64,000 nucleotides of DNA from a virus (lineage: Duplodnaviria > Heunggongvirae > Uroviricota > Caudoviricetes), in the IMG/VR virus record IMGVR_UViG_3300013800_000004, positions 1 through 64,000 of that record; one strand, written 5' to 3'. Position 1 is the stretch's first letter. Each line of letters starts with the position of its first letter. Shown piece by piece: positions 8,064 to 64,000 of this stretch. A program made the position numbers and the translations under genes. The notes under the pieces are model-generated. The model did no database searches, was not told the origin of the DNA, and saw only the letters and a program-made list of their open reading frames with translations.

Positions 8064-8140
8064 TAGATCCTGTGGGCTTCGCACAGAGGCCCCACGGACC
8101 CCGCAGGCCCACCCTAACCCCTCTATGGGTTGGGGTGGGT

Positions 8141-8992
8141 ATGTCCCTGTCTTGCTCTCGGGTTGCTGCCCGCCATCTCATCCGTGTCGCCGCACGGGAT
8201 GCTTGCCGCGTCACCTTTCGCACCCGTACAGCATCCGTGGACCTCACGGAGCGTGTTCTCGTCGCGGCTGCGGAGGGTGCGTTGATTCCCGATGACGGGA
8301 GTCCCATGCGGACCGCGGGGCTGATGGCACTGCCCCGTAAGCTGGCAGAGTTCGCCAAGGCCGTGAAGCGGTACCCGAACCTGTGGGAGAAGGTCAAGGA
8401 GTTCGTCGGGGTCGATAGCCTCGCGGACATTCCCGGTCGGGTGAAGGAACTGGCGAAAGAGGGCTACGCAGCCCTCAAGAAGGTGTTGGCCAGTGCTTTC
8501 GATGCGTGGCCCCTGAAGCTGTACACTCTGCCAGAGAGTGCTGTCTTCTCGGTCAACAAGCTCCTTGAGAAGCTCATGGCGAGGTTCCCGCAGTTCGGCA
8601 AATGGCTGGAGACCAGCGTGAAGCCCCGCGTGGACCAGTTCGACAAGTGGTTGTCCGAGCACCTCCCGGTGATCAGGAAGGTGTTGATGACGGCCATCTA
8701 CGTCTGGATCTGGTTGAACGTGGTGGAGTTCGAGTGGGACATGAAGGGGCTCCTGGGAGCCGCCACAGGTCAGTTGACTCTCTCGTCCCTTCTGGCGAGT
8801 CTGCCAGGGTCCGCCCTCGGAGCCATGATGAACGGGTTGGGGCTGGGCACATTCACCCTCCTCCCTGCCGCCACGGCGGCGAGGGTGCTATTCTTGATGT
8901 CCAAGCGGTACCTGACCTGGACTGGTAGGGGGTTCACTGTCGAGTGGGAGAAGCTCTCCAGTGATTTCGGGGTAGCCCCTGGGGTGCCCTAA
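8141..8992 (+). CDS. Putative membrane protein (283 aa) with C-terminal hydrophobic segments.
   Basis: ATG at 8141; the upstream part of ORF 7835..8992 is R/G/P junk. TM-like stretches VIRKVLMTAIYVWIWLNVV and LASLPGSALGAMMNGLGLGTFTLLPAA. Confidence 0.5.
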   Translation: MSLSCSRVAARHLIRVAARDACRVTFRTRTASVDLTERVLVAAAEGALIPDDGSPMRTAGLMALPRKLAEFAKAVKRYPNLWEKVKEFVGVDSLADIPGRVKELAKEGYAALKKVLASAFDAWPLKLYTLPESAVFSVNKLLEKLMARFPQFGKWLETSVKPRVDQFDKWLSEHLPVIRKVLMTAIYVWIWLNVVEFEWDMKGLLGAATGQLTLSSLLASLPGSALGAMMNGLGLGTFTLLPAATAARVLFLMSKRYLTWTGRGFTVEWEKLSSDFGVAPGVP

Positions 8993-9016
8993 TCTATCTA
9001 TGGGGTGCCGCCAGTT

Positions 9017-9616
9017 ATGGCATCCATGAGATTTTCGGGCCTTGCCCTCAAGATGGCGTCGACCCGTGTGGCTGACCGCTACCTACGACGGGAGCGCACG
9101 GCTCGCATGCTTTTGTCGTTCGGCGTGCGGGACTTTGAGAAGCTGAACCGTGCGGGCAACCAGTTTGCCGTGGTGTCGGCCTACCGCTCAGAACTTGGCA
9201 AGCACGCCAACAAGGAGCGCAACGGAGCCCTGGTGGGCGACATTCAGCGGATGGGGTACCGGAGGTTCGTCCCGCAGAAGTCGTCGTGGACAGACGCCTC
9301 TGGGACACACCCTGAGGCATCACTCCTGGTCCCCGGGATGTCTTTTGACGATGCCGTGCATCTGATGAAGAAGTACAACCAGGACGCCATCGTGTACAAG
9401 GACCCGTCAGGGACCATCGGGATCTACTCCAAGGATCACACCGCGGTGATGGCTTTCGACGAGGGCAAGGACATCGCAGTGGATGTGTCCCAAGACGAGG
9501 ACTTGTACTCCCGGGGGAGGTCATTCTCGATGGGGCTTCGCTTGGTAGACGACCAAACATTCCGGTGGTCGGGGAAGCCCCTCACACTAGGGGATCTGAT
9601 CGGCCAGATGGCCTGA
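9017..9616 (+). CDS. Hypothetical protein (199 aa)
   Basis: ATG at 9017 (MASMRF…). Upstream CTATGGGGTGCCGCCAGTT. Confidence 0.5.
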   Translation: MASMRFSGLALKMASTRVADRYLRRERTARMLLSFGVRDFEKLNRAGNQFAVVSAYRSELGKHANKERNGALVGDIQRMGYRRFVPQKSSWTDASGTHPEASLLVPGMSFDDAVHLMKKYNQDAIVYKDPSGTIGIYSKDHTAVMAFDEGKDIAVDVSQDEDLYSRGRSFSMGLRLVDDQTFRWSGKPLTLGDLIGQMA

Positions 9617-10617: not shown

Positions 10618-11355
10618 ATGAGCCTCAAGTTGCACCAGTTGCTTGCCGTCGAGAAGACCATCAAGGCGGACGCCGCCAAGGCCCTCACGGACCTGTACCA
10701 CCGTATCGACAAGGGGAGCCTCCTCTCGGGCATCGCCCGCAGCTACCGCCCCCTCACGGACGACGGGGAGCGCCTCCCCCCGGAGAGCACCCTCCTCCAG
10801 CTTCGCGTGGAGCAGGAGATTCCCCCGGTGCTGGCGACCCTCGTCACCCTCTACGACACGATGCTCCGTAAGGAGCACGCCAACCTCCGGGCGAAGGCCG
10901 ACGTGGTCATCGACGGCACGGTGATCCTCTCCGACGTGCCCGTCTGCGCCCTCCTCTTCCTGGAGAAGCAGACCACGGACCTCAAGGCTTTCATCCAGCG
11001 GCTCCCGACGCTGGACCCGAGCGAGACGTGGGCCCACGACCCCGCCCAGAACTGCTGGGCGACGGCGCCCAACGAGACGGCTCGCACCAAGAAGGTGCCC
11101 GTGGTGCTCACCAGGGCCCAGGCCACGGACAAGCACCCGGCCCAGACGGAGCTCGTCCACGAGGACCGGGTGGTGGGCTACTGGTCCACGACCAAGTTCA
11201 GCGGGGCCATCTCGGCTGAGCGCAAGGCGACCCTCATCGCCCGCATCGGCAAGCTCTCCGCGGCCATCAAGGTCGCCCGCGAGGGCGCCAACGCGGTCCC
11301 CGTCGGGGAGCAGAAGATGGGCGAGGTCATCCTGAACTACCTGTTCGGGGCCTGA
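10618..11355 (+). CDS. Hypothetical protein (245 aa)
   Basis: ATG with AAAAGGAGA SD. Protein-like composition; the antisense ORF 10399..11415 is an R/G/D-rich artefact. Confidence 0.6.
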   Translation: MSLKLHQLLAVEKTIKADAAKALTDLYHRIDKGSLLSGIARSYRPLTDDGERLPPESTLLQLRVEQEIPPVLATLVTLYDTMLRKEHANLRAKADVVIDGTVILSDVPVCALLFLEKQTTDLKAFIQRLPTLDPSETWAHDPAQNCWATAPNETARTKKVPVVLTRAQATDKHPAQTELVHEDRVVGYWSTTKFSGAISAERKATLIARIGKLSAAIKVAREGANAVPVGEQKMGEVILNYLFGA

Positions 11356-11879: not shown

Positions 11880-11906
11880 GTGTTTTGTCTATGCCCTCCG
11901 TGGGGC

Positions 11907-12962
11907 ATGGCACTCTCTGCGTCTCGGGTTGCTTCCAGGTACCTGCTTTCTCGGGAGTGGGGAGACCTTGATAGGCTTTTCGCGTCCTACAACAAGGCCC
12001 TGGCTGAGTTGGGTCTGAACGTCGCGCAAGAGAAATCGAGGGCCCGACCCAACTCCCTCATCCTCAAGCACTACTTCGCCCCGGTGGTGAGCACGGGGAG
12101 GGTACTCGCCGCATGGGCGGTCGAGACCAGGACCATTCCCGATGGGAAAGCCAAGGCCCTGGAGTTGGCGGCGCGGTTGATGGGGCTGGTTCGTATCCCC
12201 TCGGACATCATCCGGTGGTACGAGACCAATCTCCCCAAGCTGGAGTTCCTGCGAGAGACAATCCGTTGGAAGGAGCGTTCGGCTGAACCTTCTGGGGGTC
12301 TGGGGCTCACCACAGTGGGGCCGTTCAAGGTCCACAACACCATCGGGGCCAAAGAGAAGCAACTCAAAGAGATTCAGACCCTGGTGAAAGCTGCCGTGAA
12401 GGCGATCACCCCGGTGATGGACTTCAAGAAGGTTCTCTACGGTGACGTGTTCGTGGTGGGCCAGCTTCGACAGTCCCGCACGGTTGCGTGGTACTCCGTC
12501 CAAGAGGATCAAGTGTACCTCAGGAACCTCGCCAAGAAAGGCATTGACGATCTCGCGAGCCTCATCCATGAACTGGGGCATCGGTACTGGTTCAAGTTCG
12601 CCAGTGCGGGCATGAAGAGGAACATCTCCGGCTTGTTCTACAATCTCGCGTCGGATGTCCGGCGGGTGCCCGTCCCCGTTCTCAAGGCTGGGGACATCCT
12701 CCCGTTGAACCTCAAGGGGGAGCTCGCCCCACGGGTCATTACCAAGGTGACTCCGCTGTACTACGAGCTCGGGGATGGGGTCATGGTCAAGGTCCATGAC
12801 GTGGAAGGCATCCTCAAGCGCAAGGCTGTGGTGGGGAAGCTGTTCCCCTCTGCGTACTCCATGAAGAACGATGAAGAGTTCTTCGCAGAGTGTTTCTCGT
12901 TCTACGTTCTCGGGAAGCTGCCTGCGGGGCTGGTCCCTGAGTTTGAGAAGGCCCTCAAGTGA
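11907..12962 (+). CDS. ImmA/IrrE-like (M78) zinc metallopeptidase-domain protein (352 aa; alternative GTG start at 11880)
   Basis: HEXXH as SLIHELGHRYW plus a downstream NDEEFFAECFSFYVL (E-x-x-A-E third-ligand pattern of ImmA/IrrE). Confidence 0.55.
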   Translation: MALSASRVASRYLLSREWGDLDRLFASYNKALAELGLNVAQEKSRARPNSLILKHYFAPVVSTGRVLAAWAVETRTIPDGKAKALELAARLMGLVRIPSDIIRWYETNLPKLEFLRETIRWKERSAEPSGGLGLTTVGPFKVHNTIGAKEKQLKEIQTLVKAAVKAITPVMDFKKVLYGDVFVVGQLRQSRTVAWYSVQEDQVYLRNLAKKGIDDLASLIHELGHRYWFKFASAGMKRNISGLFYNLASDVRRVPVPVLKAGDILPLNLKGELAPRVITKVTPLYYELGDGVMVKVHDVEGILKRKAVVGKLFPSAYSMKNDEEFFAECFSFYVLGKLPAGLVPEFEKALK

Positions 12963-13813
12963 ACTCCCTTCGCTCTCGCACCATCAGGTTGGCCCACGCC
13001 AATCCAGAACTCCGACCCGTCCTCCTCCCGCTCATCAGGGAGGCGTCACAGCCCAAGGGTGTGATGACGGTTTCGGGCCCGTTCCGCATGTACATCCCAC
13101 CCGGGCTCTCGGGTCTCCAGAGCAGTCTCCAGGACACTCTGGGGACGGTGTGGGCCCTGTACAAGAATGCAGGCCTCTCCCTGGGGTCAGGCCCCATCGC
13201 TGTGGCCCTTGGTGGGAGGGTGGAGTCGCTCTACGACGTGTCCGGGAACTACGTGCTCATGACCACACATCACATCAGGAACCCCAAGAGCACGGTGTTG
13301 ATCCACGAGATGGCCCACTGGTATCACTACAACAAAGTCCCAGGCGGGGTGTCCAATCCCAAGGTGAAGGCCAAGTACCAGTGGGCACTGGCGTCCCTCG
13401 CACCGAGGAAGTCTGGTGTGGTGAAGGGCATGACCTACGAGAAGATCGGGTGGGACAACCCCTACACCAAAGACATCCCATACACCCGGATCTACAAGTT
13501 GGTGTCTGTCACGAAGACTAAGTCCACGGTTGAGCTCCAAAACCCCTCGGAGTTCGACAAGAAGCATCGCATGAACGCCCTCCGCGAGGTGCTCCCGACT
13601 TCCTACTTGGAGCAGTTGCTCAACCCTGGCGGATTGGTGACAGACGCTCATGGTGTGTCACACCTTGAGGGCGGGATTTCCCCCTGGGTGCCTACTGAGT
13701 ACGCCAAGACCAACGAGCGGGAGTGGTTCGCAGAGCTTGTGACCCCCCATGTTCTTCACCCCACGAGCACCGACCCTGAAGTGAGAGCTTGGCTGGACAG
13801 TCTCGCCCCGTGA
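12959..13813 (+). CDS. ImmA/IrrE-like zinc metallopeptidase-domain protein carrying a conserved N-terminal leader MNSLRSRTIRLAHANPELRPVLLPLIREAS
   Basis: GTG start overlapping the previous stop (GTGA). VLIHEMAHWYHY plus NEREWFAELVTPHVL. The N-terminal 30 aa are shared with 24549..25274. Confidence 0.55.
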   Translation: MNSLRSRTIRLAHANPELRPVLLPLIREASQPKGVMTVSGPFRMYIPPGLSGLQSSLQDTLGTVWALYKNAGLSLGSGPIAVALGGRVESLYDVSGNYVLMTTHHIRNPKSTVLIHEMAHWYHYNKVPGGVSNPKVKAKYQWALASLAPRKSGVVKGMTYEKIGWDNPYTKDIPYTRIYKLVSVTKTKSTVELQNPSEFDKKHRMNALREVLPTSYLEQLLNPGGLVTDAHGVSHLEGGISPWVPTEYAKTNEREWFAELVTPHVLHPTSTDPEVRAWLDSLAP

Positions 13814-20013: not shown

Positions 20014-20669
20014 CGCTAACCGCCAACGGTGAGGTGACCATCATCTGCCTCACGGATACTGTTCACCTTCACGACATTGGGGTGCACCTCACCCGGGGCC
20101 ATCGGGTGAACGTCCCCATGACACAGGCTATGAGGTCTCGGGACCTCTCCGCGGCCAAGCAGGACGGGACGGTGGCCATTCAGACCATTCGGTCGGCAGC
20201 GACCGTGCGGGCCCAGGAGTTCACCTCCTCGGACACCACCCACTCTCGCGCCCCTCGGCACAGCCCCGCCCCAGGGGGCCCCGATGCCCTTGCAGTGGCC
20301 ATCGAGCGCCTCACACAGGAGGTCCAGGGGATGCGTGTGGACATCACCCGTCTCCAGCAACAGCGTCCTGTAGCGCCCCCTGTAGCGCCCCCTGTTGTGG
20401 TGGACATCCTGGCAGAGCTCAAGGAATACGTTCGGACCCTGCCACAGGTTGGCCGCACCGAGTCGGCCCTCGAATCAATGAGGCCAACCCAACAGGTCCA
20501 GGGATTCCCCCCGGCGGTGGTGGCAGTCGAGGAGATGTTCATCCCCTCGAATCTCACAGGTGGGGCCACGGCATCAGACCTCAAGGTGGCGTCGGAGACG
20601 TCCACCAGTCCCCAACTCACGGGCACAGCGGAAGCTCTCAAGGCTGCACGGAAGAAGCGTGGGCGGTAA
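20010..20669 (+). CDS. Hypothetical protein (219 aa) with a PVAPPVAPPVVV repeat
   Basis: ATGA overlap with the upstream gene. Contains an internal 12-nt tandem repeat. Confidence 0.5.
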   Translation: MTLTANGEVTIICLTDTVHLHDIGVHLTRGHRVNVPMTQAMRSRDLSAAKQDGTVAIQTIRSAATVRAQEFTSSDTTHSRAPRHSPAPGGPDALAVAIERLTQEVQGMRVDITRLQQQRPVAPPVAPPVVVDILAELKEYVRTLPQVGRTESALESMRPTQQVQGFPPAVVAVEEMFIPSNLTGGATASDLKVASETSTSPQLTGTAEALKAARKKRGR

Positions 20670-20802
20670 CAAGGTGCCCCGGACCCGACCCCTGACCACA
20701 AGCCACCCGGCTGTGTATGGTAAGGGGTTCCGACCGAAGCCCAGTGTGGGTGCAACCGACTGTGTGCAGACGGACAATCAAGGAAGCAATGGGAGTTCAG
20801 TG

Positions 20803-21810
20803 ATGGCAGAGAAAATCAAGCAGGAACAACTCGGGGTGGGGTTGGACGTGGGCACGGGCAACGTGGTCTCGGCCCGCAAGACGGGCACTGGGGTCGAGAC
20901 TCGCCGGGTGCGTGACGCCTTCCTGGAGCTCCCCCTGGACGCCAAGAAGATGCTCAAGCTGGCCAACGTCTCCTACGTGGAGCGGACAGACGAGCTCCTC
21001 ATCCTCGGGGATGCAGCGATGGACACGGCCAATATCTTCGGCCGGGAGGCGCGACGGCCATTGTCTGCGGGGTTGGTGAGCTCCTCGGACATCGACGCCA
21101 TGGAGATCCTCGCGCTCCTCATCAAGAACGTCCTTGGAGACCCCCAGACTCCTGGGGAGCACTGTTACTTCTCGGTGCCTGCGTCCCCCGTGGACCGTCC
21201 GGGCCAGGACGTGATCTACCACCGCGGGGTGCTGGAGAAGATCGTTCGGGAGTGCGGGTACACCCCGACAGCGGGCAACGAGGCGATGGCCATCATCTAC
21301 GCCGAGACCGCCAAGGAGAACTTCTCGGGCATCGGTCTGAGCTTCGGGGCGGGGATGACCAACGTGGCGCTTGCACAGGGGACCATCGAGGGTCTGTCCT
21401 TCTCGGTGAGCCGTGGGGGTGACTGGATCGACAACGGCGCGGCCAAGTCCATCGGGAGCACGGCGTCCCGCATGTGCGCCATCAAGGAGAAGGGCGTGGA
21501 CCTGAACGCCCCGGTGGGTCGGGACCAGGAGGCCATCACCTTCTACTACCGCAACCTCATCGAGTACGCGATTGACCAGATCGCCATGCAGTTCATGGCG
21601 ATCCAGGGGAAGTTCTCCCTCCCCCGTCCGATCCCGATCATCGTGTCGGGAGGTACGTCCAAGGCGGGCGGGTTCCTCGACCTGTTCAAGGCGGTGTTCG
21701 AGAAGAAGCGCAAGAAGTTCCCCATCGAGGTGAGTGAGATCCGCGCCGCCACGGACCCCCTCAACGCCGTCGCCAACGGCCTGCTCATCCAAGCGATGCA
21801 GGAGGAGTGA
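20803..21810 (+). CDS. Actin-fold ATPase (ParM/MreB/Alp-like), 335 aa
   Basis: Internal ATG of ORF 20560 with GGGAG SD. Phosphate-1 GLDVGTGNVV, phosphate-2 GLSFGAGMTNVAL, adenosine IPIIVSGGTSKAGGFLDLF. The antisense ORF 20797..22116 is an artefact. Confidence 0.65.
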   Translation: MAEKIKQEQLGVGLDVGTGNVVSARKTGTGVETRRVRDAFLELPLDAKKMLKLANVSYVERTDELLILGDAAMDTANIFGREARRPLSAGLVSSSDIDAMEILALLIKNVLGDPQTPGEHCYFSVPASPVDRPGQDVIYHRGVLEKIVRECGYTPTAGNEAMAIIYAETAKENFSGIGLSFGAGMTNVALAQGTIEGLSFSVSRGGDWIDNGAAKSIGSTASRMCAIKEKGVDLNAPVGRDQEAITFYYRNLIEYAIDQIAMQFMAIQGKFSLPRPIPIIVSGGTSKAGGFLDLFKAVFEKKRKKFPIEVSEIRAATDPLNAVANGLLIQAMQEE

Positions 21811-24548: not shown

Positions 24549-24549
24549 T
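24549..24549 (-). other. This 1-nt entry is a placeholder, not a feature; ignore it (see CDS 24549..25274).
   Basis: Not a feature. Confidence 0.
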
Positions 24550-25274
24550 CAGCGGTCGCTCTTGCGAACAGCGCCTCGGGAGGGGCCTGCGGCTACCCAG
24601 GCCACCCACTTGGCGAGAAGCTCCGGGGTCACCTTGGAGATGAGCTCGGCCTTGAACATCTTCCACTTCTCGTCGTACATGACAAACTCGTTCAAGAGCA
24701 CGTCACGGGTGCCCACGGAGATGGCCCGTGTCGGGGCGCTATCGAGGCCCCTCGCCGCGAAGAAATCACCGGCCTTGCCAGAACGCTTCCCCATCGGGGC
24801 GAGGCCCATGCTCTGGATCTGTGCGATGAGCTTCTCGCGGGTGTCGGAGACCCTCTCTGCCGGACCCTTTCGGGCCGTCCCCGACACCGCCGGGGGGTTC
24901 TTCAGCAGGTCTTTGATAACGTCCATGTGACGCATCACGTCGTCGATGCCGTTGGCACGAGCGAGGTCGGGTGCCCTCTCCAGCAGGGCTTCCAGGAACG
25001 CCTTGGCGTCCATGAGGGTGGGGTTCTTGGTGGTGACTGCTTGACCCGTGGGGGTGAACGTCACCGCGTACCCAGACCCCGTGAGGTTCTTGTAGATCGA
25101 CCACGGCCCACTGACCAGGGCGCTGACGGTCTTGGTCTCCCCTCCGTACAGCTTGAGGTCGATGTTCTGCTTCACCAGGGAAAGGCTGGCGGTCCTGAGT
25201 AGAGGAAGGAGATGGGGGCGGAGATCCGGGTTGGCGTGTGCCAGACGAATGAGGCGTGACCGGAGGGGGTTCAT
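24549..25274 (-). CDS. Hypothetical protein (241 aa) with a conserved N-terminal leader MNPLRSRLIRLAHANPDLRPHLLPLLRTAS
   Basis: Internal ATG of ORF 24549..25325 (that ORF starts from a GTG inside the upstream motif). Upstream CTATGGGCCCGCGAAGTTC. The leader is shared with 12959..13813. Confidence 0.55.
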   Translation of the reverse strand: MNPLRSRLIRLAHANPDLRPHLLPLLRTASLSLVKQNIDLKLYGGETKTVSALVSGPWSIYKNLTGSGYAVTFTPTGQAVTTKNPTLMDAKAFLEALLERAPDLARANGIDDVMRHMDVIKDLLKNPPAVSGTARKGPAERVSDTREKLIAQIQSMGLAPMGKRSGKAGDFFAARGLDSAPTRAISVGTRDVLLNEFVMYDEKWKMFKAELISKVTPELLAKWVAWVAAGPSRGAVRKSDR

Positions 25275-25312
25275 GAACTTCGCGGGCCCATAGACGAAAT
25301 ACCACCCCCGCC

Positions 25313-25326
25313 GGGCGTAATACACC
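25313..25326 (+). promoter_or_regulatory. Class-1 motif GGGCGTAATACACC, about 36 nt upstream of the SPFH gene ATG (with AAGGAG SD)
   Basis: Motif recurrence. Confidence 0.4.
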
Positions 25327-25361
25327 TACGGCGGTGAGTCCGCCAAGGAGTTCGACCAACG

Positions 25362-26270
25362 ATGTCCCGTTTCAGTACCAAGTTCCTGTTCCTCATGGGA
25401 GTCCTCGCCAGCACCATCGCCTGCACCACGGTGGAGCCCGGTCAGGTCGGGATCGAGATCCGCTTCGGCCAGATCCAGGGGGGCGTCCTTCCTCCGGGCA
25501 TGTACGGCACGGTTATCTCCGGGGTGAAGACCCTGTCCACCCAGACCCAGACCTACACCATGGCGGGCGCGGGCACCGAAGGAGCCGGTGATGGCAGCGT
25601 GAACGTGCTGGCTCGCGATCAGCTTCCCGTGAAGCTCGACGTGTCGGTCATGTTCCACCTCAATGGTGATCGGGCCATCTCCGTCTTCCGTTCCTTCGGG
25701 GAGCGGTACGATAACAACATCGTCCACCCCCTCGTCCGCACGGCGGTCCGCGACGCTGCCAGCGAGTTCACCGCCGTGGACCTCATCGACCGCCGTGCGG
25801 AGCTTCAGGCTCGCATGACCACCCTGGTCCGGGGCACGCTGGCTTCAACCCTCCAGGGCCGTCGGGTGAACGCGGATGCTGTGGTCGTGGACAACATCCT
25901 CATCCGCAACATTGATCTTCCCCAGAGTATCGACGAGGCCATCGCCAACGTCCAGCGCCAGCGGCAGATGACGGCGGCGAGCACCCAGGCGAACCTCACG
26001 GCCCAGCAGGAAGCCGCGCGTGCCCTCACTGTCGCCAACGGCGAAGCCGCCGCCCTCATCGCCCGTACCCGCGCCGACGCCGAGATGCTCACGATCCGTA
26101 CGACGGCCCAGGCGAACGCCAACCGTGCCTTGTCGGCCTCCCTCACCCCGGAGTTCCTTCAGTACGAGCGCATCCAGGCCACCCGTGCGGTCCTGGGGTC
26201 GAACGGCACCCGGACGGTGTTTCTCCCGGCGGGGATGTCCCCCAACATGCTGATGAGCGCCCCCCAGTGA
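25362..26270 (+). CDS. SPFH/band-7 (prohibitin/HflK-C-like) domain lipoprotein (302 aa)
   Basis: AAGGAG SD downstream of GGGCGTAATACACC. Lipoprotein signal MSRFSTKFLFLMGVLASTIAC. SPFH core EPGQVGIEIRFGQI…LPVKLDVSVMFHL… with a C-terminal coiled-coil. Confidence 0.6.
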   Translation: MSRFSTKFLFLMGVLASTIACTTVEPGQVGIEIRFGQIQGGVLPPGMYGTVISGVKTLSTQTQTYTMAGAGTEGAGDGSVNVLARDQLPVKLDVSVMFHLNGDRAISVFRSFGERYDNNIVHPLVRTAVRDAASEFTAVDLIDRRAELQARMTTLVRGTLASTLQGRRVNADAVVVDNILIRNIDLPQSIDEAIANVQRQRQMTAASTQANLTAQQEAARALTVANGEAAALIARTRADAEMLTIRTTAQANANRALSASLTPEFLQYERIQATRAVLGSNGTRTVFLPAGMSPNMLMSAPQ

Positions 26271-26659
26271 CGCCGACGCAGAAGATCAAGTGGTTGGTGC
26301 TCAGCGCCCTCGCGGGCTACGCCAAGACCGCCCCCCCTCCGTACCCGTGCGCGAACGTGGACGAGCTCTACGCCGCCGTGGAGCGGGATGGCAACCTCTG
26401 CGACGAGCTTCGGGACGCGATCTCCTTGGTGAGAAACTCGGGCGAGGAGACCGGGCTCGGCGTGGCCTACCGCCATAGCTACGATTCCCGCGCGGTCGCC
26501 AAGCAACTGCCCGACGGGTCTTGGGTCGGGTGGTCGTACTGGCACGGCGGTGGCAAGCATGGAGATCCCAGCTCGATCCCCTGGATGGGGGACGCCTACG
26601 ACGTGACCTCTCACGAGGAGACCCGGGTGGTGCGGGTCTTCAACAAGACCCCCCAGTGA
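26267..26659 (+). CDS. Hypothetical protein (130 aa)
   Basis: GTG start overlapping the SPFH gene stop. Followed by a strong 20-bp hairpin terminator. Confidence 0.5.
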   Translation: MTPTQKIKWLVLSALAGYAKTAPPPYPCANVDELYAAVERDGNLCDELRDAISLVRNSGEETGLGVAYRHSYDSRAVAKQLPDGSWVGWSYWHGGGKHGDPSSIPWMGDAYDVTSHEETRVVRVFNKTPQ

Positions 26660-34479: not shown

Positions 34480-35250
34480 ATGCCTGCCCACCCTACCCCA
34501 CTTGGGGGTCTCTACATCATCCGTCTGTCAGACACCCACTACTATGGTGGGCGATCCACCAACTGCCCTCTCCGGTGGAAAACCCACCTTCGTGACCTGA
34601 GGGCTGGCACCCACGACAACAGCCGGATGCAGGCGGTGTTCAACATCCATGGCCGGTTCGAGCCTACTGTGACTGTTCCTTGGACTGAGGGGCTGGACCT
34701 TCGGGCGGTGGAACAGCAGTGGTTGGACGAGAACTTCCGCAAACCGGGCTGTGTGAATCAGGTCTGTACGTCTGACGGAGGCGGCGGAAAATGGTCCGAC
34801 GAGCAAAAGGTGAAACGCCGTTCTTTTCTGGATTCGCACCCAGATGTGCTGGACAAAGCCCGAGAGGTGTTGAGGAAACACCACGCCCAAGCGGTTGCGG
34901 AGTCCAAGGTGGTCAGGCAACGCCCTGGTGGCTACACCAAGATCATCGAACTGAACCGGGCACGGGCTGGTGTCCCGCAGAAGCCTGAGCATGTAGCCCG
35001 GCGTGCAGAGTCCAACCGCGGACGCAAGAACACCGCTGAGACCGTCCAACGGATGTCTGAGTCGGCCAAGGTCCGCGCCCAAGCACACCCGACGGTTCAC
35101 GGCGTGGGCACCCGGGAGCTCATCTCGTCACAGCAGCGTGGCCGGGTGTGGGTCCACAATGCGACTATCAACCGTCGAGTGTGGCCCCACGAGGCTCAGG
35201 AGCTCATGTCTCAAGGCTGGGAGCCCAACAGGTTGCCCAACCGTGTCTGA
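34480..35250 (+). CDS. GIY-YIG homing endonuclease (256 aa)
   Basis: GLYIIRL…YYGGRSTN…RWKTH…NSRMQAVFNIHG, the canonical GIY-YIG/R/H/N signature. Free-standing between tail genes. Confidence 0.7.
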   Translation: MPAHPTPLGGLYIIRLSDTHYYGGRSTNCPLRWKTHLRDLRAGTHDNSRMQAVFNIHGRFEPTVTVPWTEGLDLRAVEQQWLDENFRKPGCVNQVCTSDGGGGKWSDEQKVKRRSFLDSHPDVLDKAREVLRKHHAQAVAESKVVRQRPGGYTKIIELNRARAGVPQKPEHVARRAESNRGRKNTAETVQRMSESAKVRAQAHPTVHGVGTRELISSQQRGRVWVHNATINRRVWPHEAQELMSQGWEPNRLPNRV

Positions 35251-50785: not shown

Positions 50786-53700
50786 ATGCCCACGGACCTC
50801 AACATTCTCAAGAAGGCTTTTCAGAACGCCGCCTCGACGTCCGAGGCCACCAAGGCATGGGATGAGCCCTTCACGCGCCGGGAGTCCACCCACGCTGAAC
50901 AAGTGCTCCCCGCCCCCACCCTCCCGTCTGACGTAGGTGGCTGGGTTGCGTCCAGTGGCACTCCCTACGTGACGGTCGAGAGCGTTGGAGGTAGCACCTA
51001 CCTCACCCAACAGGGGGGCGCAGCACCGACTCGGACGTACTACGAGACCCGTCCGGGTCGGTCGGGGTTCAACGATGTGGACTTCGTGCCCTACAACTGG
51101 GGCACAAATCGTTTCGGGAACAAGGGCGGGGCTCTCCTTGGCCACCCCATTTCATGGGAGGTGGTCGGTCCCACGGGGAAGTCTCCGTACACTCACTGGC
51201 AGTGGTCGGTGAACACCGCCACGAACACCCTCACTCTCGAAGCCGGGGTGTTGAGCCAACTCTTCACGACTGTGCCCCCCCACGTTGCCCCGGCAACTAT
51301 CCCTACTGTGGCAGATGCGTATGGGCTGTCTGCCCTGCCCAACGGTGGGCTCTACGTGCTGGTGGAGATTTCCGGGAGCGAGGCCAGCAACCTGTTGCTG
51401 GCCCCTGCCAACGCTCTCACCCCCACGGACCCTCGCACGTCACAGTTCGAGCTATTTCGAGTGGCGGCACTTCCGGTGGGCCAGGATCTTGTGCTGGAGA
51501 GTTCCAAGCCCCTGACGGACTACTTCACCGCAGTGGGGGTCAACGACAAGATCAAGTCGATCACCCTGATTCAACCCAAGGTGACCCGTCTCGCGTCCAT
51601 TCCGCTGTCTCTCAATGGGACTACACAACAGAACCAAGTGTTCGTGTTCCTCCCCCCGGAGCGTGCGGCAAACTCGGAGTACATGCCCCCGTACAACGGC
51701 TCGGGGTTGTGCCCCGACTGGACGGTGAACGGCAACTTCGACATCACTGGGACCATCCCTACAGGCAGCCCCACCGACTACGGGACGCCCAACCTGTTGC
51801 CGGTGCCACAGCCATTGGCCACGAACCTCGCGGGCACGCTCTCTGTGGCCCCGACCTTCGCCAACCAATGGGAGGTCTTGGTCACCTACAGCGGGACGTT
51901 CACGGCGGGTCAGATCGTCCGCGTCCACACGGTCACACAGGACTCCATCACAGCTGACCAAGTGGGGCAGTGTCTCGGGTGGTTCGAGATCCAGAACGTC
52001 GCAGGGGCCGCGCCATCCACCCTCACCCTCGCACGGGTGCCTGAGGTCAACTCCCTCACAGGGGAGGTCTTCTACGGATACGGGCCAGTGGGTGTGGTGG
52101 CGGACAAGATCCGCGTAGACCTGTACGACAACGTGGGGACGATCTTTACGGACCCCGTACTGAACACCTCCAAGGTGGTTGCGGCACGGTTGGACCACCT
52201 CATCGACCCCAAGGTGATTGACACATCGTTTCGGTCGGGGGCGACGTCCAATCCACCAGGGCCCGCGGTGTTCAACACGGTCTCGGGGAGCAATCCAGGG
52301 AACCTCACAGACCTTGGTTTCCGGGTGGTGCTCTTCCCGGCCAAGGATCTCGGGGGCGCCACCATCGGGCCGGACTTTGACAACCCCATCACGGGCAACA
52401 CCGTGGTGCTGAATCCAGCCCTCCCCCCGTCGGGTCAGTTCATCGAGGTGGACTACTCGGCAGGAGTGCTCTACCTGTCTCACCCCCCCGTTCCGGGTGT
52501 GGGGTGTGCGGTTGCTCCCAATGGGATCATCGCAGACCCCACGGCCAATCCAAGGAACGAGGTGGTTCTGTACGCCGCGTGTGTGCCCTACTCTCGGGAA
52601 CCCTCTCAACGGGGCACTGGCGCACAGGTCAGGACCACTCGGGTGGGGGGCGAGTTTGGTACCCACGACGCCGTGGACGTGTACGGCGAGAGGCTGGTCT
52701 GCACCCCAGACCCCAGCACGTACGGACCGCTGAGGACATCGCTTCTTCTCACCCCCCTCAGCGTCCGCCCTCCGCCGTCGGGATGGTTCCAGCTTGGTGA
52801 AGTCACGACGGGCACCAAGCCCCAGTTTGTGAGCCTGAGTGGCCCGAACTACTACGGCTGGTTCGACCGCGCGATTGACTCCTTGTATGGCATCGGGGAG
52901 CTCGCCCCGTACGTGATCACCGAGCAAACCCGTGTGGTGTTTCCCAAGGGCCCGACCCCCAGGAGTGCATCTGACTCGGATGGAGCGCGTGGGGGCTCCA
53001 AGAGAACTCCATTCCTGAACTTCCGAGGCACCCGCACCACGGTGGCACCGGACGGTTCAGTGGTCATCTCCCCCGTCGCCACCCTTGACGACGCCTATCG
53101 GGCGAATGACCCCACGACCCCCGGAATCGGACGGATCATCACGGTGGACGGTGGGGCCATTGAGGCACAGCCCGACGCCACCGCGGGCGGTGACGTCTTC
53201 AACGCAAGTTTTCGGGTCAACACGAAGGGCACGACTCCTGGAAACCAAGTAGGATTTGACTTCCTCGGGGATGACCCCGCGGCGGGCAGTGACTCCTATG
53301 CGGGGTTCATCGACCGTAGGGCGTTCACCCCCGCCACAGCCGCCACCACCCTCACATCGAACTTCTCCTGTGACGTGGCTGCGGGTGTGGTGAGCCTCAA
53401 CCCCCTGGGTGCGGATTGGTTCTGGGAACCCACAGGCTACAAGAAGACTCTGCTCTCGTTCCTCCTGGACCTGATTGAGATCGAGGGTGTGACCTACGTG
53501 GTCGCCGGGTTCTCCGGGGCAACAGGGCACGACATCACCATCCTCAACCTGGACGGGACCGTCCCCACGGTCGCCTACGGGTCGGGTTTGTACACCGGGG
53601 CAACAGCCACGGTGTACAGGGTCAAGTTCTTCACCAGCCGCGGTGACACTGGCACACCAGCCCTGAACTTCAACTCCTGGTTCTCAGGTCAAGCGAGGAG

Positions 53701-55183
53701 TGAGACCCCCCTTGAACAACCCTTCGGGGCTCTGAACCTGTACGCAGGGAGCGCAACCGCGATCTCTCCAGGGGACGGTGGCGGGAGTATCTCGTCGCTG
53801 TCATTCTGGGCACGGTACAACCTCCTTGGGTCGGAGCTCACCGTCTCGACTGCCTACCTCGACACGTTCGGGAGGTTGGTCTCTTCCCTCAACCCTGTGT
53901 ACATGACAGGCGGGGCCCTCACCGACTACGTGCACCGGGGGGACTTCGTTTCCAGGGCTTTCAAGGACTCACTGGCCCCGACACTTCCAACCTTCGGGCA
54001 CATCGTCGAGGACTACACCTACAACGGCTACCGCTACGACTTCCTGTCGCTCATGGCCCTTGTCCCCGGGGGTGCAACCTACGTGGGGACGGCGACGGCC
54101 AACATCGCCACCCAGGGTGAAGTCACGGTGGCACTGGCGTACAGCCTCATCCCGTACGGCGCATCCATCGTCGATGTGGTCTCCGTCAACGGAGACCTGA
54201 CCAAGAACGGGCTGTTCCTGGTGTACTCCACGGATGGTGCGGCCCACATCTACCTCCGTGGGTTGAACGACACCCTCCCTGTCGGGCTCGCCCCGGGGGA
54301 CAGCATCACGTTCCGGCTCTACGCCTACGAGTCTCCAGGTCGGCATTCCACGGGCAAGTACCTGAACTCTGGCGCGTCCCCTGCCACGCAGACCAGCACG
54401 CACACACTCGGCGTTGGGTTGGACGTGGATTCCGTGGGCCTTGTGTTTGCGGGCCCGGATCGTGTGGCTGGGGGGGCAGACCGCCACGCCTACCGTGTGA
54501 CCACAGCGGTCTCGGGAGGTGCCGTGACGCCCTCCAACCAGGAGGTCGCATCCCTGGATGTGGGGGGGTACCACAAGTCCAAGGACTACCTCTACAACTC
54601 CTCAACTTCAATCACAAAGGCCATCAACCCGCTGACGTTCCATGGGTGGAACGCCAGTGGTGTTGCGGTGTGGGCCTTTGCCTCTGCACCCTTGTCTCAA
54701 TGGCAAGCGACGGGGCACCTCCACACCCTGTATGTCCCGTTGGTGTTGCCGCGTTCGAGTGCCCGTCTCAACTCGGGGGGCACTCGAACTCATCGGACGA
54801 GGCTTTCAACGGTCGTCATCATGGGGGAGTTCTTCAACAGCGGCGGCGCCCCTGGGGACCTCGCATACGTTGTCATCCACAAGGTGCAAAACACCCCAGG
54901 GACGCCGCCCACTAGGTCGGACACCCTGCTGTTCTTGGCGCAGCCCCCGGGCCCGTTCGTCTGGGCCACTACCAGCGTCCTCCCCGTGGTGGCAGGCGGA
55001 GACACCTACTACATCAACGTGGCATCTGACGTTGCGGGGGCTGCGGTGTACATCGACGACACCGAAGACTACTCCTACTACGTTGAGATCGTATCCAACA
55101 ACGGCGGCGGAGGTGTTGCTTTCCACGACATCGTGTACGGTGTTCAAATGGTATACGACGACCCCGGCCCCCGCAACTTCTGA
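50786..55183 (+). CDS. Giant structural protein (1465 aa), probably tail fiber or baseplate
   Basis: GGAGAG SD. β-rich T/G/S/V/A composition. The antisense ORF 51452..52927 is an artefact. Confidence 0.65.
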   Translation: MPTDLNILKKAFQNAASTSEATKAWDEPFTRRESTHAEQVLPAPTLPSDVGGWVASSGTPYVTVESVGGSTYLTQQGGAAPTRTYYETRPGRSGFNDVDFVPYNWGTNRFGNKGGALLGHPISWEVVGPTGKSPYTHWQWSVNTATNTLTLEAGVLSQLFTTVPPHVAPATIPTVADAYGLSALPNGGLYVLVEISGSEASNLLLAPANALTPTDPRTSQFELFRVAALPVGQDLVLESSKPLTDYFTAVGVNDKIKSITLIQPKVTRLASIPLSLNGTTQQNQVFVFLPPERAANSEYMPPYNGSGLCPDWTVNGNFDITGTIPTGSPTDYGTPNLLPVPQPLATNLAGTLSVAPTFANQWEVLVTYSGTFTAGQIVRVHTVTQDSITADQVGQCLGWFEIQNVAGAAPSTLTLARVPEVNSLTGEVFYGYGPVGVVADKIRVDLYDNVGTIFTDPVLNTSKVVAARLDHLIDPKVIDTSFRSGATSNPPGPAVFNTVSGSNPGNLTDLGFRVVLFPAKDLGGATIGPDFDNPITGNTVVLNPALPPSGQFIEVDYSAGVLYLSHPPVPGVGCAVAPNGIIADPTANPRNEVVLYAACVPYSREPSQRGTGAQVRTTRVGGEFGTHDAVDVYGERLVCTPDPSTYGPLRTSLLLTPLSVRPPPSGWFQLGEVTTGTKPQFVSLSGPNYYGWFDRAIDSLYGIGELAPYVITEQTRVVFPKGPTPRSASDSDGARGGSKRTPFLNFRGTRTTVAPDGSVVISPVATLDDAYRANDPTTPGIGRIITVDGGAIEAQPDATAGGDVFNASFRVNTKGTTPGNQVGFDFLGDDPAAGSDSYAGFIDRRAFTPATAATTLTSNFSCDVAAGVVSLNPLGADWFWEPTGYKKTLLSFLLDLIEIEGVTYVVAGFSGATGHDITILNLDGTVPTVAYGSGLYTGATATVYRVKFFTSRGDTGTPALNFNSWFSGQARSETPLEQPFGALNLYAGSATAISPGDGGGSISSLSFWARYNLLGSELTVSTAYLDTFGRLVSSLNPVYMTGGALTDYVHRGDFVSRAFKDSLAPTLPTFGHIVEDYTYNGYRYDFLSLMALVPGGATYVGTATANIATQGEVTVALAYSLIPYGASIVDVVSVNGDLTKNGLFLVYSTDGAAHIYLRGLNDTLPVGLAPGDSITFRLYAYESPGRHSTGKYLNSGASPATQTSTHTLGVGLDVDSVGLVFAGPDRVAGGADRHAYRVTTAVSGGAVTPSNQEVASLDVGGYHKSKDYLYNSSTSITKAINPLTFHGWNASGVAVWAFASAPLSQWQATGHLHTLYVPLVLPRSSARLNSGGTRTHRTRLSTVVIMGEFFNSGGAPGDLAYVVIHKVQNTPGTPPTRSDTLLFLAQPPGPFVWATTSVLPVVAGGDTYYINVASDVAGAAVYIDDTEDYSYYVEIVSNNGGGGVAFHDIVYGVQMVYDDPGPRNF

Positions 55184-62030: not shown

Positions 62031-64000
62031 ATGTCAGAATCCGACGACGAGATTGTCGCATCTCTCAGTGAGGGCCCCGCCGACATCAGCCCCACACACG
62101 CGAAACTCCTGAAGATCCGGGAGCGCAAGGATCTCGAAGCCCGCCCCTCTTCGTACATGAGGGAGTCCTTTACGGGGTTCGATGGAGTTGAACGCCCGCT
62201 CAAGCTCAGGTACTACCAAGTTCAGGGAGTGATGCACCTCCTGGCATGTACCCGTTTCCTTCTTGGGGACGACACGGGCTTGGGGAAGTGTGTCAAATTT
62301 GACACACTGGTCCAGACAGGCCGGGGACTGTTCCAACTTGGTGAGCTCGGGCCGTGGCAGACCATGGCCCCGGACACGTTCGCCCCCATGACTACGTCCA
62401 CGGAGGTGTGGACCGGGTGGGAATGGGCCACCGTCAAACGATTCTACTTCGGGGGGGTGAAGCCGACGCGAACGATCACCACGAGACGGGGGTACGAGAT
62501 CACTGGGACGTATGTCCATCCCCTGTGGTCGCGTCGGGTGGATGGGACTGAGGGATTTGTTCAGACGAGTGGCCTCAGGTTGGGAGATTTTCTGTCGTTG
62601 GACAGAAGCCCCTCACTCTTCCCCGAAGAGGAACCGACGCTCCCAGTCTTGGAGCAATGTGACACCCATCAGAACACCATCCACTACACGCTGCCCGCCA
62701 CGCTCTCTCCAAACCTCTCGGCATTCTTGGCCTACGTGGTGGCCGAGGGTAACAGGGCTCGGGGTGCTGTAAGCATCACTCAGGACAAGAACCTCAACCC
62801 CGAGACTCACGATCACATCCGGCAATTGGCCGAAACCCTGTTCGGGTGGGATGGGAACCACAGTTGTGCCAACCGTGATACGCGGATCATCATCTCCAGT
62901 GTGCTCATCAAGTCCTACCTGGAGGGTCTAGGGGTGGCCCCTGTGCTGTCGGCACAGAAGTCCGTGCCTTGGCCCATTTTCCGTGGCACCAGAGAGTCTG
63001 TGGCTGCGTTCCTCCGGGCCTTCTTCGACAGTGAGGGTTCGGTCGGTCAGGGCGTCGTGGAGGTGTCCAGCGCGTCTGAGCAACTGCTTCGGGAGGTGCA
63101 GGTTCTCCTGCTCAGGTTCGGGGTCGTTTGCACCCGCAGCCCGAAGAAGGTCAAGGGCTACGACCAGACCTACTGGCGTCTGGCCCTGTGTGGGGACGAC
63201 CTCAGGGCGTTCAAGGAACACATTGGGTTCCTGACCCCACGTAAGCAGCAAGCCCTGGACGATGCTGCATCCAAGGAGTCCAACACCAACCTGGACGTGG
63301 TACCTCACGCACGGGAGGTGGTGGAGGCTCTTCGGGCGGACATCCTGAAGGCCGTGTCTTTGCGTGGCCCCAACGGGGAACGTAAGGGGTCAGGGCTCAA
63401 GCGATTTGGGGTGTCCTTCGAGAAGACCCTGAACAACATTCGCAACGCAGGCAGGAACCCCACCTACAACTTCCTCGTGAAGTTGGGTGCCATTGCCGAG
63501 TTCGTAGGGGCGGACAAGGGCCCGGCCTACCGGGCTGTGTGTGACCTCGTCCACAACCACTTCTTCTACGACCCCATCGTGTCTATCACGGAGGGGGAAG
63601 AGCCTGTCATGGACATCGAGGTGGACCATCCCCGTCACAGTTTCGTGGCGGGCGGGTTCGTGAACCACAACACGCTCATGACCATTTCGGCGTTGACGTA
63701 CCTCTGGGAGCGCAACCCGGACCAGAAGGTCATTATCCTCACGTCCAAATCCGCAGTGGAGCAGTGGGCAGGGGAGTTCCGCAAGTTCACCAAGGGGATC
63801 ACCACGTTCGTGGCTCGGGGGTCTCCCGCACAGCGCCGGAAGGTCCGCGAGAAGTTCCTCGCCGCCACGGGCCCCTCGGTGTTGGTGATGGGGTACCGGA
63901 CGGCGGTCCAGGACTTTAGCGAGATCCAGGGCGAAGAGGGGTACGTGCTGGTGACCGATGAGGCGGCAGCCTACAAGAACCACCAGACGCAGGTCCACCA
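62031..64000 (+). CDS. SNF2-family helicase/ATPase, 3'-truncated at the window edge, interrupted by an intein in the P-loop. Absent from the ORF track.
   Basis: I translated the frame manually with no stops from 62031 to 64000. N-extein …LRYYQVQGVMHLLACTRFLLGDDTGLGK | intein | TLMTISALTYLWERNPDQKVIILTSKSAVEQWAGEFRKF… reconstitutes SNF2 motif I (GLGKT). ATG preceded by GGGCGTAACGTCGGAC. Confidence 0.6.
   Translation, partial: MSESDDEIVASLSEGPADISPTHAKLLKIRERKDLEARPSSYMRESFTGFDGVERPLKLRYYQVQGVMHLLACTRFLLGDDTGLGKCVKFDTLVQTGRGLFQLGELGPWQTMAPDTFAPMTTSTEVWTGWEWATVKRFYFGGVKPTRTITTRRGYEITGTYVHPLWSRRVDGTEGFVQTSGLRLGDFLSLDRSPSLFPEEEPTLPVLEQCDTHQNTIHYTLPATLSPNLSAFLAYVVAEGNRARGAVSITQDKNLNPETHDHIRQLAETLFGWDGNHSCANRDTRIIISSVLIKSYLEGLGVAPVLSAQKSVPWPIFRGTRESVAAFLRAFFDSEGSVGQGVVEVSSASEQLLREVQVLLLRFGVVCTRSPKKVKGYDQTYWRLALCGDDLRAFKEHIGFLTPRKQQALDDAASKESNTNLDVVPHAREVVEALRADILKAVSLRGPNGERKGSGLKRFGVSFEKTLNNIRNAGRNPTYNFLVKLGAIAEFVGADKGPAYRAVCDLVHNHFFYDPIVSITEGEEPVMDIEVDHPRHSFVAGGFVNHNTLMTISALTYLWERNPDQKVIILTSKSAVEQWAGEFRKFTKGITTFVARGSPAQRRKVREKFLAATGPSVLVMGYRTAVQDFSEIQGEEGYVLVTDEAAAYKNHQTQVH
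62289..63671 (+). mobile_element. Intein (461 aa) with a LAGLIDADG (dodecapeptide) homing-endonuclease domain, inserted between K and T of the helicase Walker A motif
   Basis: Starts CVKFDTLV (block A). TGTYVHPLW (block B). Two LAGLIDADG-like motifs, FLAYVVAEGN and FLRAFFDSEGS. Ends …GGFVNHN followed by Thr (+1). Confidence 0.6.

Follow-up and report, generated by a model that had tools for sequence, protein, structure and literature searches.

Why do two otherwise different genes of one uncultured virus begin with nearly the same thirty residues? The question is raised by a stretch of 64,000 nucleotides assigned to Caudoviricetes (IMG/VR record IMGVR_UViG_3300013800_000004, positions 1 to 64,000; hereafter the window), in which gene A (12959 to 13813, plus strand) and gene B (24549 to 25274, minus strand) share an N-terminal leader that we call tag 1. 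A preliminary description of the window had noticed this leader and taken it for a peptide under selection, possibly a targeting, packaging, processing or secretion signal. In the present analysis, the leader proved to be real (23 of the 29 residues after the start codon are identical), to be conserved as a peptide and to recur on many unrelated proteins of huge uncultured phages. Our favoured reading, to which we give a probability of about 0.6, is that tag 1 is a portable tag by which its carriers dock onto one common receptor, probably encoded by the phage.

One leader on two unrelated proteins

Gene A, second in its operon, consists of tag 1 and a HExxH metallopeptidase-like body. It starts with a GTG at position 12959 that shares bases with the TGA ending the upstream gene (GTGA), the translation starts (M)NSLRSRTIRLAHANPELRPVLLPLIREAS, and the tag occupies the first 30 codons (12959 to 13048, plus strand; 46.3 bits with the motif hidden Markov model (HMM) on the translation), with the conserved core LRSRTIRLAHANPELRPVLLPLI at 12968-13036. 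Gene B joins tag 1 to a well-folded alpha/beta body of unknown function. Its protein starts MNPLRSRLIRLAHANPDLRPHLLPLLRTAS, which is readable on the minus strand only, the plus-strand translation being meaningless, and its tag likewise covers 30 codons (25185 to 25274, minus strand; 45.1 bits on the translation), with the core LRSRLIRLAHANPDLRPHLLPLL at 25197-25265. The true start of gene B is the ATG at 25274 and not the GTG at 25325, because all 23 of the 23 family members begin with M-x-x-LRS. A six-frame translation of the window searched with the motif HMM contained exactly these two copies, the next match scoring -3.8 bits, and the two scores are far beyond chance.

The DNA of the two leaders is 67% identical over 90 nucleotides, and different codons are used at 15 of the 23 identical residues. 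BLASTP and the profile-profile alignment of the two ortholog families agreed that the similarity is confident over the first 17 to 28 residues or so, and that the proteins are unrelated beyond the leader. Since the confident alignment ends at about residue 28, the leader does not belong to a longer domain common to the two proteins, and the preliminary description was right to limit the similarity to the leader.

The bodies themselves gave little information. Gene A had been called an ImmA-like protease, a name that we do not retain: no match to an ImmA/IrrE (Peptidase_M78) profile was found, nor to any family in Pfam (E<=0.1), PHROGs, NCBIfam or PDB sequence searches, and what is left is the HExxH motif (HEMAH at residues 116-120), which is generic to many zincin families. 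A C-terminal EWFAE is also visible, in a region common to the first gene of the operon (11907 to 12962, plus strand). This upstream gene has HELGH, no tag 1 and a different leader, MALSASRVASRYLLSRE, which belongs to the second leader class described below (tag 2); it is a paralog of gene A through the C-terminal E(E/R)(F/W)FAE region (E 7e-5) and weakly matches ATLF. For the gene B protein, tblastn found no match among phages, the Pfam, PHROGs, NCBIfam and PDB searches gave no family, and there was no informative fold match.

An alignment of 309 instances places the core of tag 1 at positions 4-26 (L R s k L I R L A H a N P E L R p h L L P L L; consensus L-R-x-x-L-I-R-L-A-H-x-N-P-E-L-R-x-x-L-L-P-L-L), so that the module measures about 26 residues; a weak K/R-K/E-A-A tail follows at positions 27-30, and then conservation ceases. 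In the AlphaFold2 (AF2) model of gene B, built from an alignment of the 23-member family, the tag forms helices at residues 4-14 and 16-28 with a predicted local distance difference test (pLDDT) score of 62-83. The overall pLDDT was 84.7, the body was well folded and the tag-body junction was of low confidence, while a predicted template modelling (pTM) score of 0.47 means that the relative placement of tag and body is uncertain. The tag is thus modelled as two short basic amphipathic helices, broken at the conserved Asn-Pro and containing a second conserved Pro. Helices of moderate confidence that are not firmly placed against the body fit a peptide that folds on binding.

The net charge of the tag is +3 to +4. 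Together with its N-terminal position in genes A and B, this positive charge is what a Sec/Tat or membrane-targeting signal would have, and a secretion signal had been among the early suggestions. We consider such a signal very improbable, and a Sec/Tat signal or membrane anchor excluded by composition, since the longest uncharged run is 7 residues where at least 10-12 are needed, neither a twin-arginine motif (RRxFLK) nor an AxA site is present, and the tag also occurs at C-termini and internally.

The codons show on which level the conservation operates. Among 198 unique DNA instances, from sequences of 37-76% GC, the core carries a mean of 1.03, 1.58 and 0.25 bits at the first, second and third codon position, respectively, and identical residues with 4-6-fold degeneracy use the same codon in 26% of the comparisons. 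With third-position information near nil, selection acts on the peptide. These two values together exclude a recent duplication, gene conversion or a mobile DNA element as the source of the similarity; the preliminary description had already argued against a recent duplication from the two window copies. The chance that tag 1 is a non-functional peptide, whether left over from a recent duplication, an in-frame mobile DNA element resembling the Rickettsia palindromic elements (RPEs) or the beginning of a longer domain, is accordingly close to nil: only the initial similarity spoke for it, and the codon values, the 15 of 23 differing codons in the window and the collapse of alignment confidence after about residue 28 speak against it. 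The RPE-like element in particular was rejected, the conservation of the DNA being below that of the peptide (0.25 versus 1.03 and 1.58 bits).

Distribution, position and cargo of tag 1

To look for further carriers, as the preliminary description had proposed, a 32-column profile of tag 1 was compared with 1.84 billion protein cluster representatives by an index-free HMMER search, which returned 2,489 clusters at E<=1e-3, 172 of them with E<=1e-10. The index-free search was needed: a word-indexed protein search with a 42-amino-acid leader alignment had found one protein only. In the IMG/VR viral contigs, protein patterns located 47 tag 1 loci on contigs of up to 497 kb, and a degenerate DNA pattern located 116 stretches, several per contig. 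The same DNA pattern gave eight stretches in 185,579 species genomes, all of them in metagenome-assembled bins and none in an isolate genome. Among 50,697 GenBank phage records, tag 1 occurs in LR745208.1 only, an uncultured and unannotated phage, and 72,556 plasmid records do not have it. No family or chain covering the motif was present in Pfam, NCBIfam, PHROGs or the PDB sequences, and literature searches gave no match to the motif strings or to LR745208, a broader one on targeting motifs of huge phages being uninformative. Tag 1 is therefore specific to one clade of uncultured phages of 100-500 kb, and the module appears to be previously undescribed.

LR745208.1 is complete (485 kb) and has exactly 11 copies, of which 10 are N-terminal, dispersed from 15 to 433 kb; ten other genomes have at least 3 to 15 copies each in the parts that were fetched. 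The LR745208.1 copies form a lineage variant, TLRSKLIRLAHeNPALRP, with Ala at position 17 in 7 of the 11 copies against about 3% globally, and they share 76% protein identity and 41% codon identity at identical residues. The variant suggests that the interface with the partner evolves with the phage. This bears on the idea that tag 1 hijacks a host hub, that is, binds a universal host protein (for example, RNA polymerase, the ribosome, a chaperone or a cytoskeletal protein) and so brings effectors to it. A core that is nearly invariant across genomes of 37-76% GC, which implies very different hosts, would fit a universal target. We nevertheless find this idea improbable: the tag is limited to one phage clade, it is unlike known hub-binding motifs and matches no PDB chain, and the PALRP variant, which is under selection in the LR745208.1 lineage, fits a partner evolving with the phage.

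Among 212 unique instances from DNA, about 74% are N-terminal, having a Met or a probable alternative start codon immediately before the motif; internal copies make up 16% and C-terminal copies up to 10%. Many of the 150 top-scoring proteins contain 2-5 copies, often one at each end, separated by linkers with a median of 165 residues, 38% of which are charged. An element of the form EEGK…MSPED…NKDKYxDKFK, not present in the window, also recurs in the multi-tag proteins. Proteins with a tag at both ends or with 2-5 copies on such linkers could point to self-association, in which the tags would bind each other so that tagged proteins co-assemble with no separate receptor, and the multi-copy proteins with their disordered charged spacers would nucleate a condensate or meshwork; hydrophobic residues fill some 10 of the 23 core positions, more than a free peptide should have. 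We give this explanation a low probability. LR745208.1 manages with 11 single-copy carriers and no multi-copy protein, and an AF2 model of the three-copy protein P0002 showed no confident bundle (pLDDT 52, pTM 0.22), although this is weak evidence, the alignment having had two sequences.

The bodies behind the tag are exchangeable. The 136 N-terminal carriers comprise 96 unrelated body families; carriers are mostly single-domain proteins with a median length of about 170 amino acids, and their genes frequently stand in tandem arrays. In the family of gene B, the tag is at the extreme N-terminus in 23 of 23 members, and in six of them an insert of about 60-115 amino acids lies between tag and body. 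Four of these (P0152, P0154, P0160 and P0172) have in common an extra domain of about 90 residues (…DVDVAKKFGRKTVFARFHGTVTLYVVRDDG…), and P0156 and P0162 have different inserts at the junction. In the family of gene A, the close orthologs P0176-P0178 (75-83% identity) are tagged, and the HExxH body without tag 1 is found in P0179 (57-61% identity) and in the distant homolog P0180. By these comparisons, ortholog families acquire the tag, lose it and change its spacing, which is the behaviour of a transferable signal; the preliminary description was right in inferring a peptide signal under selection. A further motif, AGCEKLPEG(G/P)MRDNCEKK, was observed in at least seven different proteins (P0005, P0010, P0014 and P0107; L005, L037/L065 and L071) within the clade, in three cases immediately behind tag 1; it does not occur in the window.

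Few carriers have known domains. Those recognised are ART-PolyVal (four proteins), Zeta toxin, RelA/SpoT, pentapeptide repeats, WGR, DUF2958, DUF5710 and a kinase-like AAA_33, and no carrier matched MuF or a portal protein. The tagged proteins with recognisable domains look like host-takeover or conflict effectors, and the tagged proteins as a whole are mostly small and fast in turnover. ART, metallopeptidase and RelA/SpoT are hub domains of the 'polyvalent proteins', effectors proposed to be delivered into the host along with the DNA; phage T4 supplies the packaged prototype of such effectors, its ART enzyme Alt (PMC5512222). The genes next to the tagged-gene arrays encode, among others, a sigma factor, kinase, superoxide dismutase, ferritin, RNA ligase, phospholipase D-type protein (PLD), chaperonin and AAA protein.

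Upstream element, second leader and genomic surroundings

A short sequence element stands upstream of each tagged gene or operon of the window. The pattern TCTATG-N12-14-ATG has four matches in the window against 0.22 expected, a number reached in none of 100 shuffles, and in each match the final ATG is the start codon of a gene, or of the first gene of an operon, from which a protein with tag 1 or tag 2 is made. One match (N14; 25272 to 25294, minus strand, with CTATG at 25289-25293) lies upstream of gene B, and another (N13; 11888 to 11909, plus strand) lies upstream of the operon formed by 11907-12962 and gene A, the true start of the first gene being 11907. The other two, also on the plus strand, belong to genes with tag 2: the element at 8122-8143 with the gene starting at 8141 (MSLSCSRVAARHLIRVA; together 8122 to 8992), and the element at 8997-9019 with the gene starting at 9017 (…MASTRVADRYLRRER; together 8997 to 9616). 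The spacer is often GC-rich and partly self-complementary. In LR745208.1, CTAT[CAG] stands at -18 or -19 from the ATG in 6 of the 10 N-terminally tagged genes, compared with 4.3% of 587 candidate genes, and in 135 tagged genes from many contigs it peaks sharply at -18. The pentamer CTAT[CAG] alone has no genome-wide enrichment over control pentamers; it is significant only in its concentration at tagged genes and its fixed position. The element looks promoter- or leader-like, and the tagged genes appear to be co-regulated.

Tag 2 has the motif S-x-S-R-V-A-x-R-Y/H-L, which is matched three times in the window (0.1 expected), each time N-terminally. Its carriers (8141-8992, 9017-9616 and 11907-12962, all on the plus strand) are otherwise different proteins. 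The orthologs of the 8141 gene in L121 and L075 keep the motif, and those of the other tag-2 genes retain related sequences. P0179, the gene A ortholog without tag 1, starts …PSPSRVVSRHLLSS, a leader of the tag 2 kind. These observations hint at alternative, exchangeable leaders under a common regulation.

Co-regulation would also suit a degron or quality-control tag, through which an unfoldase, protease or chaperone of the phage or host would destroy potentially toxic early effectors, or keep them inactive, at a defined time. Toxin-like enzymes (Zeta toxin, ART, RelA/SpoT and the metallopeptidase-like protein) are among the carriers, degrons function at either terminus, and AAA and chaperonin genes occur near the arrays. 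Known degrons are, however, much shorter and less conserved than a core of 23 residues, and internal and tandem copies are hard to explain in this way, so that we attach little credence to such a role.

The window has a GC content of 62.7%. A megablast comparison of 14 kb of the window with GenBank phages found no close DNA match, and most of the window proteins are without a known family. Gene B has an ortholog on a 413-kb groundwater contig, where the gene order is unchanged, and the part of the window between 15.5 and 64 kb runs co-linear with 345-298 kb of LR745208.1 (485 kb, 'uncultured phage'); because of this gene order and co-linearity, the element from which the window derives belongs to a clade of uncultured phages of huge size. 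LR745208.1 has neither the body of A nor that of B, despite the co-linearity of the flanking genes. Recognisable window proteins are a volactin-like actin, two VWA proteins, an SPFH protein, a MucR-like regulator and homing endonucleases, and, besides several open reading frames (ORFs) of 1100-1800 amino acids, a 1731-residue protein with a glucosaminidase domain and an SNF2 helicase with a LAGLIDADG intein.

The volactin-like actin (20560-21810, plus strand; Pfam Volactin 1.3e-75) is extremely conserved in the clade: 120 viral stretches encode it at 50-86% identity, LR745208.1 does so at 78%, and the 595-kb phage LR756511.1 has a distant copy (33%). Gene B is part of a cassette (24549-26659) with an SPFH/Band_7 gene (25362-26270), from which it is divergently transcribed at a distance of 88 bp, and a gene of 130 amino acids. 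The cassette is also present in the 413-kb groundwater relative and is absent from the otherwise co-linear region of LR745208.1. Upstream of the operon of gene A, the DUF7873 protein (10618-11355, plus strand; 313 bits to Pfam) has a GC content at third codon positions (GC3) of 0.97, which suggests a very high expression. Searches of the PDB, PHROGs and NCBIfam gave no match for this protein, LR745208.1 does not have it, and its relatives in IMG/VR number only 10, at 36-46% identity, on other contigs.

The region 26853-61893 (plus strand) consists of co-linear giant ORFs of 1758, 1149, 1731 (with the glucosaminidase domain), 1465 and 1808 amino acids with almost no family matches, all conserved in LR745208.1 except the 1465-residue ORF (50786-55183). 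It is followed by the SNF2-family helicase gene (62031-63998, plus strand), which contains the LAGLIDADG endonuclease intein and continues past the end of the window. Two homing-endonuclease-like genes, both on the plus strand, are located at 320-1957 (DUF7487, with a PHROG homing-endonuclease match) and 34480-35250 (GIY-YIG); DUF7487 recurs adjoining tagged-gene arrays on other contigs.

Proposed docking to a receptor and known systems

If tag 1 is a docking tag, it would fold on binding one conserved receptor surface, probably encoded by the phage, and polymorphic cargo would thereby be brought to the same place at the same time; the multi-copy proteins would act as multivalent adaptors. In most carriers, the tag is found right at the N-terminus, on a flexible tether. 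The data show the modularity, distribution and positions of the tag, the selection on the peptide, its helical propensity and the common upstream element; the binding to one receptor and the location of that receptor we infer. The leading destination is, tentatively, the capsid interior, which we regard as possible rather than probable, because of the analogy with T4 and the effector-like domains of the cargo. The cargo would then enter the interior of the procapsid and be packaged and injected with the DNA, as in T4 with its capsid-targeting sequence (CTS), internal proteins and Alt.

Several results weigh against the docking interpretation. No docking receptor was identified. Capsid, portal and terminase genes were not identified in the window, so that the word 'phage' relies on the IMG/VR and GenBank labels, and the 93 neighbours of the tagged-gene arrays included no head, capsid or shell genes. 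The absence of a multi-copy tag protein from LR745208.1 means that such proteins are not an essential scaffold. Co-evolution of the tags within genomes, in 16 contigs and the window, was small (0.398 versus 0.352) and confounded by codon and GC bias. Finally, the 309 copies have no conserved prohead-protease cleavage site (for example, L/I-x-E) after the motif. The preliminary description had considered an N-terminal propeptide that is cut by a prohead protease, and this form of the packaging idea is not supported: no residue is conserved after the motif, Glu being found at position 28 in 67 of the 309 copies (about 22%), and a propeptide does not agree with 16% internal and up to 10% C-terminal tags, with 2-5 copies per protein or with array neighbours that are accessory and not head genes.

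Candidates for the receptor were sought among the window proteins. The SPFH/Band_7 protein (25362-26270) was rejected as it is absent from LR745208.1, which has its 11 tags, and the DUF7873 protein (10618-11355) was rejected for its absence from the same genome and because its relatives are on other contigs. The volactin-like actin, which LR745208.1 does have, is a possible partner of the tag, but its co-occurrence with the tag shows no more than clade membership.

The second leader and the common upstream element admit a wider view, which we think unlikely: the phages would possess a proteome-wide system of 'address labels', with at least two classes of N-terminal leader, swappable between orthologs and paralogs and expressed from a common TCTATG-type promoter, that sort a fast-evolving set of effectors to distinct destinations built by the phage. 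Tag 1 (LRxxxIRLAHxNPxLRxxLLPLL) would be one label and tag 2 another, P0179 having tag 2 where gene A has tag 1. The destinations might be the capsid interior on the one hand and an intracellular compartment or cytoskeletal structure on the other, for which the volactin-like actin in the gene block is a candidate, and the multi-tag disordered proteins might again be adaptors. If true, the labels would amount to a protein-sorting code in a bacterial virus, which has no described counterpart; the second leader and the shared promoter hint at such a code rather than a single signal.

Most genes of huge phages are without known function, and here one tag marks a whole class of accessory proteins. 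The class can be retrieved from metagenomes by sequence alone, about 2,500 clusters already, and the tag is a testable handle on the receptor and hence on the destination of the tagged proteins. If it is indeed a packaging or sorting signal, it would provide a ready tag of 26 residues with which foreign proteins could be brought into large capsids or into compartments of the phage.

The reading of tag 1 as a docking tag can be compared with several known systems. The CTS of the T4 internal proteins IPII and IPIII, reportedly described by Mullaney and Black in 1996, resembles tag 1 in being a short N-terminal peptide common to unrelated proteins of one phage (two carriers in the window and 11 in LR745208.1). 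The T4 internal proteins share this N-terminal sequence (PMC9958956), it can be transferred to foreign proteins, and its carriers and Alt are packaged and injected (PMC9958956, PMC5512222). However, the T4 CTS has about 10 amino acids, is strictly N-terminal and is removed by the gp21 protease, whereas tag 1 has a core of 23 residues, no sequence similarity to the CTS and no conserved cleavage site, and is also found C-terminally, internally and in tandem.

Conserved N-terminal markers on polymorphic effectors with unrelated C-terminal domains are also known from contractile injection systems, namely the MIX motifs of the type VI secretion system (T6SS) and the N-terminal packing signals of the Photorhabdus virulence cassettes and extracellular contractile injection systems (PVC/eCIS). 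These markers differ from tag 1 in machine and sequence, and no such machine was identified in the genomes studied here.

Cargo-loading peptides and domains of encapsulins are situated at either terminus, are sometimes repeated in disordered regions and bind to the inside of a shell with the HK97 fold. Tag 1 is similar as a docking-type peptide that is found at either terminus, is repeated in disordered regions and is attached to diverse cargo. It differs in that there is no resemblance in sequence, and that the tagged genes are dispersed over 485 kb with no adjoining shell gene found. In the scaffold protein of phage P22, a C-terminal basic helix-turn-helix of about 25-30 residues docks to the inner surface of the capsid and has been used to load foreign cargo. 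The predicted helix-break-helix of tag 1 (AF2; about 26 residues, charge +3/+4) may resemble this element. The P22 element, however, is present once, at the C-terminus of a protein whose gene is the dedicated scaffold gene within the head module, whereas tag 1 occurs on dozens of unrelated proteins, mostly at the N-terminus and outside any recognisable head module.

A parallel in cargo exists with the polyvalent proteins, which have kinds of effector domain in common with the carriers of tag 1 (ART-PolyVal, metallopeptidase and RelA/SpoT). In polyvalent proteins, the domains are joined in one giant polypeptide, which is often fused to MuF or a portal protein (Iyer et al. 2017; PMC5512222), whereas in the carriers of tag 1 each domain is a separate small protein with a common tag. 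The comparison suggests that tag 1 represents a non-covalent version of the polyvalent protein strategy for the joint delivery of effectors.

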